Shown here: positions 36,652-62,419 of the stretch, piece by piece
Position numbering within the stretch: the stretch's first letter is position 1
How the letters are laid out: every line of letters starts with the position of its first letter
NCBI GenBank assembly: GCA_965218425.1
Contig: OZ244621.1
Location: 736,001-800,000 of the forward strand
DNA length: 64,000 bases
Direction: 5' to 3'
Source of the DNA: an uncultured Candidatus Binatia bacterium
GTDB taxonomy: Bacteria; Desulfobacterota; Binatia; UBA9968; CAXXLF01
The notes under the pieces: generated by a model
Told to the model about the DNA's origin: nothing
Seen by the model: the letters and a program-made list of their open reading frames with translations, nothing else
Database searches by the model: none
Made by a program: the position numbers and the translations under genes

Positions 36652-36771
36652 AAGGCCACCTCCTCAAAGGACTGGCATTATTTTTTATAAATACAATCAA
36701 AAAAGTTAAGAATACTAACGTTTATATAATATTCCGATAGGTAATGTCAAGATTAAAACAAAATTAAATTT

Positions 36772-37478
36772 GGGTCATGCCTAGCTGAGTGGGTTTTCGC
36801 ATAGGTACTGTAGCAGGGTTCGATACTTGTTGGAACCTCGACGGTTGTATCGCCATTCGGTTTCCTTGAGATGGAGGTGCAAGGTGTGTTTGGGCAGGCC
36901 TTTGAACCTTGCCAGCCTGACCTTCGCCAGAGCCCACAAGCCCTAGATGCCGTTGATATGGACGGCCCCCTTGGTGAACTCCTCCTTGCAATGATCGACG
37001 CGGAAGTGACCATAGCCGAGATCGACTAGGGCGTTGTAGCCACGCCAGCCATCGGAATGGATGACGGTGCTGGCGTCCACCCGGCCCCGGATAATGCCCT
37101 GTAACGTCGGCTTCGAGCAATCCGAGACGATCTCGGTGTAGACTTGCCCCTGGCGCTCGAAGATGCCGAAGACGGCTGTTTTGCCGTAGGCACCGCGCCC
37201 CAAACAAGCTCTCATCGACCTCGACGACACCAAACAAGGGACGCTGCGTTTCACAACCAAGCACAATACGCTCCCTCAAGCCACGGTAGAGCCGGTTCAC
37301 GGTGTGGCGGTTCAGACCGCTCAGAGCCGCCGCCTGGAGTGCGGTCAAATCAGCGGCAAAACAGCGCACGACCCCCCGGATCTTGGCCTCAGAAGTCCTT
37401 GAACGCTTCGCATGCTTGTTTTTCATTGCCATGTATAGCCTTATGCATCATTCTATATTCCTCAGCTAGGCATGACCC
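36772..37478 (-). mobile_element. IS1595-family element (IS1016-like, 707 bp)
   Basis: Perfect 18-bp TIRs gggtcatgcctagctgag (36772-36789) and ctcagctaggcatgaccc (37461-37478); 8-bp TSD ttaaattt at 36764-36771 and 37479-37486. Confidence 0.95.
36781..37432 (-). pseudogene. IS1595 family transposase, inactivated
   Basis: VEVDESLFG, GRGAYGKTAVFG, IHSDGWRGY, HINGI*GLW, LHLKETEWR motifs; frameshifting deletion near 37195-37203 and TAG at 36943-36945. Confidence 0.88.
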
Positions 37479-37660: not shown

Positions 37661-38863
37661 TCAACGCCTTGGAATTTTGAGTTGCTGACCGACGGTAATG
37701 AAGTGGATGTTCGAAAGCCCGTTGAGGCTCTGAATTTCACGGATGGGGATTCGATAGGCATTGGCGATATGGGAGAGGGTCTCTCCCCGTGCGACCTGAT
37801 GTCGCACCCAGAGCCCAGCCACCGCCTTTTCATAGGCTCGGGTAAGAACTTCCAGCCGCTCCGCAGGCACTTTCACTCGATACCACTTTGGGATGACTCT
37901 GATCCTGCGGCTCAATGCTGGGTTCCAGGCGAGAAACTGCTTGCGCGAAACATCGGCAAATCGAAGCAAAAATGAGACGGAAATGAGCTGATCCATCTTC
38001 AACTCTGCGAAGTTAACCGGTGTATGGTACTCCAAATCGGGTAAATACTCTTCATCGCGTTTTGCTACGTCCACCGCGGCCAGAAACTCTGCGTAAAAAT
38101 TCTTAGACGACACACCGAAACGGCGGCCCTTGTATTTACGGATTATTTCCATGAAATCGTCGGTGCCAACTCTTGCAATTGCCCGGCGTATACCGTTCCG
38201 TCCATGATTGTAAGCGGTAATTGCTAAGGGCCAACTGCCAAACATGTCGTAGTTTTCCGCCAATAAACTGGCGGCGGCGCGGGTGGATTCCAGTGGATCC
38301 TTCCTCTCGTCCACGGTGGATGTGATTCGGAGGTATTTTCGTCCTGTCCTGCGTATAAACTGCCACATGCCCACCGCACCCGCACTTGAGCGAGCATTCA
38401 CCTGAAAAGACGATTCGATGAGGGGTAAGTACGCAAGCTCCACAGGCAGACCACGCTCCTGAAAAACTGCTTGAATCTGTTCTATATAACGCTCGGAGCG
38501 CTCCATTCCCAAGATAAAGTTCTCTTTTGCCCCTCGCTGCCCCAAAACCCTGTGCCTCGACTCGAGGCCGTGTTGACGAACAATTCTCATGCGTTCGCGA
38601 CGCACGAGGCTACGGACACGTCGTCTTTTGCCCACTCGCATAACCTTGTATATCTTCGACGGATCCATGGGGTCGTAAAAAACAATTTCTTCTGTACTAT
38701 ATTTAGTAAAGATCTGCTTCCAAAATTCGATGGCCGGCTCAAGTCCGGAGGGAACCGGGAAAGGACTGGCCCCTGCGGAATCCTCCTGGCCCACCGCACG
38801 GAAGGAAACCAAGGAGACTACAAGCAATAAAAGACAAATGGGAAGTCGTTTGGAAAAAACCAT
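37661..38863 (-). CDS. Lytic transglycosylase with C-terminal LysM (MltD-like)
   Basis: Signal peptide, IESSF, AGAVGMWQF, DER.DP, AYNHG, C-terminal LysM (HQVARGETLSHIA). Confidence 0.9.
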   Translation of the reverse strand: MVFSKRLPICLLLLVVSLVSFRAVGQEDSAGASPFPVPSGLEPAIEFWKQIFTKYSTEEIVFYDPMDPSKIYKVMRVGKRRRVRSLVRRERMRIVRQHGLESRHRVLGQRGAKENFILGMERSERYIEQIQAVFQERGLPVELAYLPLIESSFQVNARSSAGAVGMWQFIRRTGRKYLRITSTVDERKDPLESTRAAASLLAENYDMFGSWPLAITAYNHGRNGIRRAIARVGTDDFMEIIRKYKGRRFGVSSKNFYAEFLAAVDVAKRDEEYLPDLEYHTPVNFAELKMDQLISVSFLLRFADVSRKQFLAWNPALSRRIRVIPKWYRVKVPAERLEVLTRAYEKAVAGLWVRHQVARGETLSHIANAYRIPIREIQSLNGLSNIHFITVGQQLKIPRR

Positions 38864-39000
38864 GCGCCCCGCCCACCGGATGAAAGATTTCAATATGATA
38901 TCGGCTGAACCACCAAGGGTCAAGAAAAATCAAAAAAAAGGACCCGGCATTGCCATCGCATGCCTGGGGTGATAGAAGATAAAAAATGAGGTGAATTCCT

Positions 39001-39561
39001 ATGAAACTCTTTTCTTCCAGTAGTTGACCTTTCGCCCACAGGACTAGGCTTGTCCTGGCAGAGAAAAATATTCCTTACGAGCTTATCGAGGTGGACTTAA
39101 AAAATAAGCCAAAGGAACTCTGGGAGCAAAACCCATACGGGAAGGTTCCTGTACTTATGGACGGCGACGTGACCGTTTACGAATCTGCCATCATCAACGA
39201 ATACCTCGATGAAAAGTTTCCCCAAGTTCCTTTGGTACCAACGGACTTAGCCCAAAGGGCGCGCATGAGGATCTGGATTGACTTCTGCAATACCAGGCTC
39301 CAGCAGGCGGCAAGCAACTATCGGCACGGGCACGAAGTAGAAAAAGCGAAAAAGAATCTCAAAAAGCACCTCCTCACCCTGGACCGGGAAATGACGGATC
39401 GGGAATATCTTGTTGGCAGCTACTCCTTGGCGGACTTAACCTACATCCCATTCTTTGTACGCCAGCCACGCTACGGGTATACCGTCGACGATAGCACCCC
39501 CCATGTTAAGGCATGGATGGACCGCCTCCTGGCACGCCCGGCCCTGAGAGCCGAGCCCTGA
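39001..39561 (+). CDS. Glutathione S-transferase, probable selenoprotein (Sec at codon 9, UPFA motif)
   Basis: RBS gaggtg and ATG 39001; MKLFSSSS*PFAHRTRLVLAEKNIPYELIEVDLKNKP is in frame with ORF 39091..39561 (NPYGKVPVL, YESAII, SLAD); TGA 39025-39027 sits at the CPF catalytic position. Confidence 0.85.
39028..39065 (+). promoter_or_regulatory. Putative bacterial SECIS element
   Basis: Stem caggac (39039-39044)/gtcctg (39052-39057) with a G-containing loop, starting 11 nt after the UGA and extendable by gcc/ggc. Confidence 0.65.
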
Positions 39562-39573
39562 ACCGACAAGGGT

Positions 39574-40668
39574 TTAAAACCCGTAAAACCGTTTAGCGTT
39601 ATCTTCGAGTATCCTTTTCTTCGCCGAAACGGAAAGGTCTCTTCGTTCGCCCAATAACCTGGCCGTTCCCTCGGTGCGATCGGCGTGGGGATAGTCTGAG
39701 GAGTACATAAGTAAATCCTCGCCCATTTCACCCACCGCACGACCAAGGTACGTTTCGTCCCCCTCACAGCCAAAAAAGATCCTACCCGAGCGGAGATATT
39801 CGCTTGGAGGACGAGAGATCAACTGACGCGCATGATAACGGGGATTTTCAAAATGGTTGTCCATGCGTTCCACATAGGAGGCCACCCAATTACACCCCCC
39901 CTCGAGAAAGGCAAAGCGTAGATTCGGATACCGTTCCATAAGACCGGTACAAAGAACGCTGGTCAATCCAGCCATAACGGGAAACACGCCCGCTAGCACG
40001 CGGGTTGGGAAAAAATGATGGAAGAGATCAGTGACTCCGGGAAATTCAAGGCTAAAGTGAATTGCGATGGGTATCTGCAATCGATCCGCCTGTGCGAAAA
40101 AGGCATCGTGGTGGGGATGATCCAGGCGCTTATCCCCCACTGTCCCATTGATCATGACTGCGGCCAGACCCAGCTCCTTTAAATGTGACAGCTCTTGCGC
40201 CGCTCCCTCGGGATCGCGAAGGCACACCAGCCCCAAACCTTTCAACCGGTGAGGCGCCGCCCCACAGGCTTTGCCGAGCCATGTATTGTAAGCAGAACAG
40301 ACGCCGTTTCCCAACACACCATCATCCCAAGAGTTAATGTGCAGAAGAAAGCTGGGAAAGAGAAACTGAACGTCAATGCCCTCCTTGTCCAAATCATCCA
40401 GCCGCTCTTTGACATTGGCAAGAGTCTGACTCCCAACGGACGCCCGGCGGAACTTGGCCAGCTCCCCGCCGGGGGGCGCCGCCGACCCTGGATTGAATGC
40501 CCCGGGGTTTTTCGGACGCCGATAACGAGTCTGTCCATCCATGACCCAAAAGTTATGACCCTCGTCATCGGCGATGAGCCGCGGACGGTACTTGCGCAGT
40601 GAAGGCTCCATATATTTTTCAAACACCTCCTCCGTCTCAAAGAGGTGCCCATCAGCATCAATGATCAT
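39574..40668 (-). CDS. Amidohydrolase family 2 protein
   Basis: IDADGH, AYNTW, AIH, FLEGG, SSDYPH. Confidence 0.88.
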   Translation of the reverse strand: MIIDADGHLFETEEVFEKYMEPSLRKYRPRLIADDEGHNFWVMDGQTRYRRPKNPGAFNPGSAAPPGGELAKFRRASVGSQTLANVKERLDDLDKEGIDVQFLFPSFLLHINSWDDGVLGNGVCSAYNTWLGKACGAAPHRLKGLGLVCLRDPEGAAQELSHLKELGLAAVMINGTVGDKRLDHPHHDAFFAQADRLQIPIAIHFSLEFPGVTDLFHHFFPTRVLAGVFPVMAGLTSVLCTGLMERYPNLRFAFLEGGCNWVASYVERMDNHFENPRYHARQLISRPPSEYLRSGRIFFGCEGDETYLGRAVGEMGEDLLMYSSDYPHADRTEGTARLLGERRDLSVSAKKRILEDNAKRFYGF

Positions 40669-53023: not shown

Positions 53024-53100
53024 TGGCGCGCCCGGAGGGACTTGAACCCCCGACCTACAGATTCGAAGTCTGCCGCTCTATCCAGCTGAGCTACGGGCGC
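53024..53100 (-). tRNA. tRNA-Arg (anticodon TCG)
   Basis: Reverse complement gcgcccgtagctcagctggatagagcggcagacTTCGAAtctgtaggtcgggggttcaagtccctccgggcgcgCCA forms a cloverleaf; anticodon loop cttcgaa; encoded CCA. Confidence 0.96.
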
Positions 53101-61807: not shown

Positions 61808-62419
61808 CTACATATTCGCCTTAACCGAGGGACGTTCTTTCATCCTCTGAAGCCAGGATCCAAGCCGCGGGATTGACGTTGCCGGCAGCACTTCGAACAT
61901 TTCCAGACGGAGAAACCGGGGGACGAGGGCAATATCCAACAGGGTGAACTCCCCCATGAAATAATCTTTGTTTCCAATTTCATTTTCAAGATATTCTAGA
62001 AGCTCCCTCAACTGCCGGGTTGTCTTCTCAATTAAGTTCCAGTCCCGTTCGCCATCATCCGTCTTGACGTAAAGCTCGGCCCGTATTGCCCAATACAGAG
62101 GTTGGATATAGTTGAGACCATAATCGGTAAGCACACGTATCCGTGCTCTCTGGAAGGGGTCCTTGGGCATCAAAGGGGGACTTGGGTAGGTTTCATCGAG
62201 ATACTCGTTGATGACGCACGATTCATAGAGCACGTTTTGCCCATCGACGATCACAGGCACCTTTCCATAGGGGTTGAGCTTGAGAAACTCGGGCTTTTTC
62301 TGTTCCCTCTTCTTGAGATCAATGGGCTCGATTTCGTAGGAGAGCCCCTTTTCGTGCAGAGCGATTTCCACTCTTTGACAGTTGGGCGAGGGACCATAAT
62401 CGTAAAGTTTGATGGCCAT
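61808..62419 (-). CDS. Glutathione S-transferase family protein
   Basis: SPNC, LNPYGKVP, YESCVINEYL, FTLLD. Confidence 0.9.
   Translation of the reverse strand: MAIKLYDYGPSPNCQRVEIALHEKGLSYEIEPIDLKKREQKKPEFLKLNPYGKVPVIVDGQNVLYESCVINEYLDETYPSPPLMPKDPFQRARIRVLTDYGLNYIQPLYWAIRAELYVKTDDGERDWNLIEKTTRQLRELLEYLENEIGNKDYFMGEFTLLDIALVPRFLRLEMFEVLPATSIPRLGSWLQRMKERPSVKANM

Follow-up and report, generated by a model that had tools for sequence, protein, structure and literature searches.

A Glutathione Transferase Gene with a Predicted Selenocysteine at the Catalytic Position in an Uncultured Candidatus Binatia Bacterium

Results and Discussion

The locus and the reading frame

The window (the whole stretch of DNA that was analysed; 64,000 nucleotides, contig OZ244621.1, positions 736,001–800,000) belongs to the genome of an uncultured Candidatus Binatia bacterium. 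The gene under study occupies 39001–39561 (+) and, according to translation, Pfam and AlphaFold, would encode a 186-residue selenocysteine-containing glutathione transferase (GST_N + GST_C; Sec-GST below); the same product length was found in 54 of 64 orthologues. A Shine–Dalgarno-like site, GAGGTG (38988–38993, +), was located by inspection of the sequence 7 nt 5' of ATG 39001; an SD-like word stands upstream in 57/64 orthologous loci, and the start codon lies 8–10 codons ahead of the TGA in 64/64. Translation from ATG 39001 gave the read-through N-terminus MKLFSSSS-U-PFAHRTRLVL, in which the in-frame UGA (39025–39027, +) corresponds to a putative Sec9 in the motif U-P-[F/Y]-A-H-R at the start of helix 1 (orthologue alignment, model); the terminal stop is TGA 39559–39561. 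Ribosome-binding site, ATG, in-frame TGA and N-terminal peptide had all been described in the first-pass annotation and were found again in the sequence, as was the loss of the active site from an ORF track beginning at 39091: the plain ORF opens with GTG (39091–39093, +), a false start taken by gene callers (ORF list; database homologues), and yields a shortened product of 156 residues. Read-through of the terminal TGA at 39559 was considered and rejected; the orthologues stop at about residue 186 with TAA, TAG or TGA alike. No sigma70-like promoter was found on the plus strand between 38800 and 39700.

In the read-through product Pfam detected PF02798 (residues 1–71), PF13417 (3–75) and GST_C (110–180); the match to PF13409 reached 74.3 bits (cut-off 25). 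The AlphaFold model is a complete GST fold (pLDDT 95.9, pTM 0.91) with helix 1 at residues 10–21, capped by residue 9, and the last helix at 180–184; strands 1–2 and helix 1 are missing from the 156-residue form. The TGA was covered without differences by contigs of three DNA-type runs (X2, X4 and X6; X2 possibly from the same DNA source) and by a single contig of 209 nt from an RNA library (X9, depth 2.6), a contig that is no proof of transcription; TGC or TGT at 39025–39027, which the first-pass annotation had named as a refuting finding, was seen in none of the four.

The Sec-GST gene stands alone between a divergent lytic transglycosylase gene (SLT + LysM, Pfam; 37661–38923, −), found near the GST gene in 7/64 loci, and a convergent amidohydrolase gene (ORF list, Pfam; 39574–40668, −); both are placed outside the system. 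A Ser-type GST paralogue with the motif S-P-N-C lies at 61808–62419 on the minus strand, where it had been reported as a second GST; it is 38% identical to the Sec-GST and falls into a separate Ser clade (alignment, tree). Between a sulfite-reductase-like gene and the SLT/LysM gene a remnant (36764–37432) was noticed, which presumably resembles an IS1595-type transposase, and a tRNA-Arg(TCG) gene was located at 53024–53100 (−).

The surroundings of the 64 Sec-GST loci were compared by targeted tblastn. An Opp/Dpp-type permease, part of an ABC operon just 5' of the GST gene, was found directly upstream in 28 loci (mostly family f2: L024–L029, L065–L120), LarE (TIGR00268) just downstream in 24 (family f3: L031–L050, L101–L110), an ornithine-cyclodeaminase-like gene nearby in 15 and a nitrilase-family gene in 8; a neighbour common to all 64 was not found by this search. 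The permease exceeds the cut-off of the Opp2B nickel-permease model and scores 325 with the glutathione-importer GsiC model, below its cut-off of 463. The labels of both LarE and the Opp/Dpp permease touch nickel, possibly by chance. An assignment of function from an operon was rejected, there being no operon in this genome and the permease and LarE neighbours not being universal.

Conservation of the UGA and distribution

A set of 120 loci was examined (95 distinct; 65 at ≥50% identity); column 9 lies outside L068, which is truncated at its 5' end, and outside L083, a fragment from the C-terminal part, and neither was counted. TGA was present at this column in 64/64 distinct orthologous loci covering the codon (52–99% identity), with the frames intact on both sides; these loci are kin, and 25 of them form one tight clade. 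Among 150 distant representatives taken, 130 cover the column and 106 of these have Cys; a natural Cys orthologue occurs at 62–64% identity. The pairing of Cys with TGA proposed at the outset was accordingly borne out by alignment, the close homologues carrying TGA and a conserved hairpin. Among the 120 database homologues listed, 118 begin only past column 9; of the other two, one shows Cys there and the other Trp. The present reading corrects the annotation of these 118, which lack the catalytic N-terminus. Gene callers shorten the Sec-GST across a whole order of uncultured bacteria.

The Sec-GST clade was found in 58/61 genomes of the host order: 55 with a full or nearly full match and one internal TGA, and three with fragments at contig ends that retain the TGA. 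The query gave no match in the remaining three genomes (G018, G025 and G051; 93, 87 and 78% complete). In the class sample 45/301 genomes matched at E 1e-45, all within the host order; none of the 251 class-sample genomes outside this order contained the clade. The phylum sample gave two matching genomes out of 301, both from the host order. Named records with the gene are mostly Candidatus Binatia or Deltaproteobacteria. Two copies of the clade were observed in six genomes (G013, G014, G019, G029, G033 and G041), the pairs of G013, G019 and G033 being placed in different subclades of the tree.

The SECIS-like hairpin

A bacterial SECIS-like hairpin was located at 39039–39057 (+) by folding and alignment. 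The 6-bp stem caggac/gtcctg with a G-containing loop noted earlier is indeed present and begins 11 nt past the UGA, at 39039; such a stem alone proves little. A better drawing is a stem of eight pairs, one of them U·U, CAGGACUA/UUGUCCUG, closed by an apical GGC triloop (39047–39049) at +20 to +22 from the UGA. Stem (6–8 pairs), loop (3–7 nt), spacing (17–19 nt) and energy (−8.2 kcal/mol) lie within the published bSECIS limits (stem 4–16 bp, loop 3–9 nt, spacing 16–37 nt, MFE ≤ −7.5 kcal/mol; PMC13188914, Fig. 2). The bSECIS model given there also asks for G in the first two loop positions (PMC13188914); the family consensus, a GG[A/C] triloop, fits, the host hairpin only if the apical A–U pair forms above the U·U mismatch, since in the MFE fold of the host sequence the loop spans 7 nt and its G residues stand at positions 3–4. 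The mismatched pair of the host is A–U in 34/41 distinct relatives, and the U·U variant occurs in 7/64 loci. The stem alignment took 46 of the 64 loci, corresponding to these 41 distinct relatives, and 96.3% of its cells were paired in the 8-pair stem with the GG[A/C] triloop.

By itself the hairpin is near chance: a loosely defined SECIS-like hairpin follows 69/657 terminal TGAs and 193/1500 Cys codons of the host (about 10–13%), and folding of windows whose borders had not been fitted to the stem gave z = −0.4 to −1.7. The value of −3.4 was obtained only in a window cut to the stem post hoc, and stability was rejected as evidence. Covariation inside the clade was not significant (one compensatory cell, with 69/500 shuffles as high; RNAalifold covariation term 0.02), because the stem hardly varies. 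The conservation of the hairpin exceeds chance. Arg14 is encoded by AGG in 63/64 loci and Arg16 in 64/64, and Val18 by GTC in 64/64; elsewhere in the same 64 genes AGG accounts for 70/816 Arg codons. The five 4/6-fold hairpin columns have an entropy of 0–0.73 bits vs 0.84–2.27 bits in 39 other conserved columns, the loci being kin and not independent.

As a Cys control, genes encoding the same peptide with Cys were collected by a pattern scan of metagenomes (37 loci, 34 distinct after three duplicates were dropped). AGG at either hairpin Arg was found in 0/34 of these genes, and no more than 6/8 stem pairs were retained vs at least 7/8 in 63/64 Sec genes; the codon habits of the control genes differ because they come from other taxa. 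The Cys form L225, nested in the Sec clade, has 5/8 stem pairs left and has lost the loop GG. The distant Sec-GST L125, a single sequence, has 7/8 stem pairs, four of them changed on both sides, and the same GGC loop at +20.

Decoding of UGA in the host

Selenocysteine is inserted in bacteria, by an established mechanism, by SelB with Sec-tRNA at a SECIS hairpin. The host genome (4.46 Mb, one contig, 97% complete) contains selA, selB, selD and tRNA-Sec, all above the family cut-offs and all within 1.301–1.312 Mb, so that the selABCD set postulated from the window alone was recovered; selD carries an in-frame TGA of its own. Within the host order selA was found in 58/61 genomes, within the class in 152/201. 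That the UGA is a real stop (of a pseudogene or an N-terminally truncated 156-residue protein), a sequencing error, or Trp/Cys in another code is very hard to maintain even though nearly all top homologues listed start past the codon, one has Trp, and the hairpin alone is near chance, since the same TGA with intact flanking frames recurs in every orthologous locus, the truncated form would lose strands 1–2 and helix 1, independent contigs agree on the TGA, TGA is an ordinary stop that ends 657 long ORFs of the host, the tRNA-Trp anticodon is CCA, and the codon aligns to Cys, not Trp. It is almost certain that the apparent early stop of the GST gene specifies a catalytic-site selenocysteine.

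Active site and proposed mechanism

The motif U9-P10-[Y/F]11-A12 was found in 64/64 orthologues (Tyr in 59, Phe in 5). The putative cis-Pro loop of the glutathione site, K48-V49-P50 (39142–39150, +), and the γ-glutamyl binding pair E61-S62 (39181–39186, +) are invariant in 64/64, the roles of the loop and of the Ser being taken from the work on Cys-GSTs (PMC4138524); the N-capping box S142-x-x-D145 of the C-terminal domain (39424–39435, +) has S/T in 63/64 and D in 63/64, the other row being truncated. In Cys-GSTs the cis-Pro is expected 30–40 residues on; P50 lies 41 residues past Sec9, S62 is present in 64/64 and D145 in 63/64. R99, R154 and Y158 are invariant and the helix 4–5 hairpin is short, which together suggest an open, cationic second site. 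Cys96 is present in 46/64 orthologues, and C-x-x-U in 17/64. As to the supply of glutathione, the host has gshB and a GCS2-family ligase; with the one glutathione reductase model tried, TIGR01424, no host gene reached the cut-off.

The following course of events is proposed. SelB carrying Sec-tRNA would bind the GG loop 20 nt past the UGA and insert Sec as residue 9; with selenium absent, translation would halt after eight residues. The product would be a short cytosolic GST of two domains whose glutathione site is complete, and Sec9 would occupy the place of the catalytic Cys of Cys-GSTs (omega, lambda; C-P-[F/Y]-A). The selenolate would attack GS-X, either a conjugate of glutathione or a mixed disulfide, at its sulfur, X-H would be released with an Se-SG adduct left on the enzyme, and a second GSH would resolve this adduct to give GSSG. 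Cys-GSTs deglutathionylate rather than conjugate (PMC4138524), and deglutathionylation is favoured here because the invariant site residues are conserved features of these enzymes. An intact selenoprotein gene with Cys-GST-type chemistry, i.e., deglutathionylation or thiol transfer, is regarded as the probable reading, with a fair measure of doubt. The first-pass annotation had spoken of a Sec-dependent thiol transferase or reductase; its selenocysteine part is supported by the TGA in 64/64 loci and by the sel genes, and the enzymatic role is one that we infer.

Relation to omega GSTs and SspA

Omega-class GSTs are extended at the N-terminus and carry additional helices at the C-terminus. The present protein has neither extension; its match to human GSTO1 (PDB 1eem; E 3e-25) covers GSTO1 residues 25–212 of 241. 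Omega structures were absent from the best 50 rows of the fold search, which does not exclude a likeness. With the omega/lambda Cys-GSTs (PMC4138524) the Sec-GST shares the motif at the start of helix 1, the following Pro, the cis-Pro, the Glu-Ser pair and the N-capping box; it differs in having Sec for Cys and in its length (186 vs about 230–240 residues). The likeness to the C-P-[F/Y] motif of omega/Cys-GSTs claimed previously therefore holds for the motif, with U for C, and does not extend further: sequence and fold are as near to SspA and tau GSTs, and the omega extensions are lacking. The closest solved sequences are SspA homologues (PDB 4qq7, 6v91, 4hoj, 1yy7; 33–36% identity), and SspA homologues are also the top fold matches, among them 4dej (Z 25.3, rmsd 1.5, 184 aligned). 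By the features tested the Sec-GST is neither an omega GST nor SspA.

Other functional readings

The same selenoprotein might have GSH-dependent peroxide reduction as its main job, which would make it a naturally occurring glutathione peroxidase with the scaffold of a GST: the selenolate would reduce ROOH to ROH, and two GSH would recycle the selenenic acid. Engineered seleno-GSTs with Sec at the active site acquire GPx activity close to the level of the natural enzyme (PMC9944854), the C-x-x-U of 17 orthologues could protect or resolve the selenium, and many other selenoprotein candidates of the host belong to peroxide or thiol redox families. The engineered proteins, however, were built on Ser-type scaffolds, AhpD-, Prx- and OsmC-like candidates are already available to the host for dealing with peroxides, and the motif together with the nested natural Cys orthologue (P0012, L225) points to ordinary Cys-GST chemistry; a main role in peroxide reduction is considered unlikely.

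Less probable still, to the point of being doubtful, is a non-catalytic or regulatory SspA-like GST fold, with Sec9 serving to sense redox state or to hold a ligand, that would bind a partner such as RNA polymerase. The nearest solved proteins being SspA homologues, the lack of transferase activity in E. coli SspA counts against an enzymatic reading. Moreover, SspA is the best NCBIfam model for the Sec-GST, which is in turn the best SspA match of the host; the best PDB matches in sequence and fold include C-P-F-S forms with bound GSH, two of the Burkholderia and Neisseria SspA forms with C-P-F at the same site binding GSH; the ESM Atlas neighbours bear automatic SspA names; and the gene is retained in nearly all genomes of the order. 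Yet the score of 123.1 bits is far under the NF007016 cut-off of 314, SspA, tau, nu and other GSTs give fold Z-scores that differ by no more than 1 unit, and the helix 4–5 region is shorter than in SspA. The PHP motif of SspA contacts sigma70 region 4 and is needed for RNAP binding (PMC7515715); it occurs in 0/64 Sec-GSTs, in which columns 75–76 vary. No sspB match was found in the host genome (97% complete), and the invariance of Sec and of the G-site speaks for a catalytic role. Deglutathionylation or thiol transfer of the Cys-GST type is retained as the preferred reading.

Comparison with known selenoproteins

The Sargasso Sea survey introduced GST among its new selenoprotein families (four sequences, COG0625; Zhang, Fomenko and Gladyshev 2005, PMC1088965); the GOS survey gives 12 GST selenoprotein sequences (PMC2398784), and for the Olavius symbionts the GST selenoprotein is entered as "not detected" (PMC1976440). 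In Table 1 of a 2026 review a GST-like family (PF13409; example sequence MEK9676863.1) stands among 119 families; it is entered as "predicted with high confidence" and is uncharacterised (PMC13188914). By domain and codon the Sec-GST belongs to this family, as judged from sequence: both have the PF13409 GST domain, one in-frame UGA at a conserved Cys and a SECIS-like hairpin, and both are predictions. The published family comprises a few sequences from marine metagenomes, and the entries consulted name no motif for it; the clade described here has U-P-[F/Y]-A-H-R and is nearly fixed in one order. A real selenoprotein gene of a new lineage within a known, predicted family is well supported.

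Engineered seleno-GST peroxidase mimics (PMC9944854) likewise carry Sec at the GSH-activating position of a GST, but are artificial and of Ser type, whereas the present gene is natural, under selection and provided with a SECIS of its own. Algal Sec-GSTs (PMC7539508) are also selenocysteine-containing and predicted only; they differ in eukaryotic decoding with a SECIS in the 3'-UTR. Searches of the literature, subscription papers being outside their scope, brought up no biochemical work on a natural Sec-GST; within the same scope, and apart from the web entries of BSepDB, no study of Binatia/Binatota selenoproteins came up either. At least 11 genomes of Binatia were included in the BSepDB screen (PMC13326102), and the BSepDB entries may hold Binatia Sec-GSTs already. 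New here are the matched-peptide Cys control, the nested Cys revertant, whose hairpin has decayed, and the probable second gain of Sec with convergent hairpin geometry. The natural Cys orthologue at 62–64% identity offers a control, and the protein a small, well-folded target, for the question of Sec vs Cys.

History of the Sec-GST clade

In a tree of 185 rows the 63 full-length Sec sequences, P0012 (Cys) and P0015 (Trp in the database) form one branch (SH-aLRT 99); in a careful tree of 38 rows the Sec branch has a support of 92/93. Cys-form orthologues with S-[R/H]-G-C-P-Y-A are nested in the Sec clade (L225 (701–742, +), P0012, P0277, P0278 and P0281). L225 only was counted as an in-clade Cys locus; L220 and L224 are N-terminal fragments, of which L224 falls with the outgroup and L220 is too short for the tree. 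A reversion from Sec to Cys is the probable origin of the nested forms, an event called rare in bacteria (PMC13188914).

L125 (4001–4600, +), from an unclassified bacterium, has U-P-Y-C and TGA at the same column and is 35% identical to the Sec-GST. It lies outside the Sec clade on the trees, and forcing it in gave p-AU 0.019 (group named after the tree had been seen; long branch). L125 suggests more than one Sec-GST lineage, and a second, separate origin of Sec in its lineage appears likely from these sequence comparisons. Within the host 14 GST_N matches were obtained, one of them a glutaredoxin; so far as can be read from the alignment, the Sec-GST is the only one of the 13 GSTs with Cys or Sec in the catalytic column.

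A wider scenario may be put forward tentatively, as a guess with a modest chance of being right: a GST scaffold with selenium-based glutathione peroxidase or selenenyl transferase activity would have been acquired once at the base of the Binatia order and kept in nearly every member, from soil to sponge, with at least one reversion to Cys accompanied by SECIS decay; L125 would have gained Sec separately and converged on the GGC loop at +20. If true, this scenario would provide a natural Sec/Cys series from which the contribution of selenium to a GST could be read, and would give the engineered seleno-GST peroxidase mimics a counterpart in nature.

Other selenoprotein candidates of the host

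From 121–145 read-through candidates passing two loose filters, 20 were picked by hand. The family match spans the TGA in 16 of them; four failed (L167 and L169, without a family; L173 and L174, TGA outside the match). The filters are crude, and the resulting count of host selenoproteins is a lower bound because one genome-wide UGA filter missed the Sec-GST gene. The 16 loci (within L155–L172) comprise AhpD/CMD (two), GrdA, GrdB, PrdB-like, deiodinase-like and DUF3179 candidates, further OsmC-like (two), DsbA-, ResA- and Prx-like candidates, SelD, and the MetE-like, PRK06370-type and glutaredoxin candidates described below. The host genome is selenoprotein-rich, which adds to signs of selenoprotein-rich Binatia.

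Several candidates deserve separate mention. A MetE-like (PF01717) enzyme with H-[L/V]-U-R-G-N (L171, L177–L184; G000:C1:4425002–4426099, +; TGA 4425719) has host paralogues with Cys at the Sec position; TGA was found in 8/8 matching genomes (31 searched), with the hairpin conserved, and the family is absent from the sections of Table 1 of PMC13188914 examined. A flavin disulfide reductase of the PRK06370 type with C-V-N-T-G-U (L156, L185–L190; G000:C1:2282203–2283570, +; TGA 2282341) has TGA in the host and a congener only and in 0/4 other matches, which looks like a recent change from Cys to Sec as far as sequences can tell. A small NrdH/YruB-like glutaredoxin with U-G-P-C (L157; G000:C1:3003900–3004734) is divergent from a Ser-type GST paralogue. 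The hairpin nearest to the UGA of selD (G000:C1:1308519, −) has a CCC loop without G; most other host candidates, unlike selD, have GG loops after the UGA.
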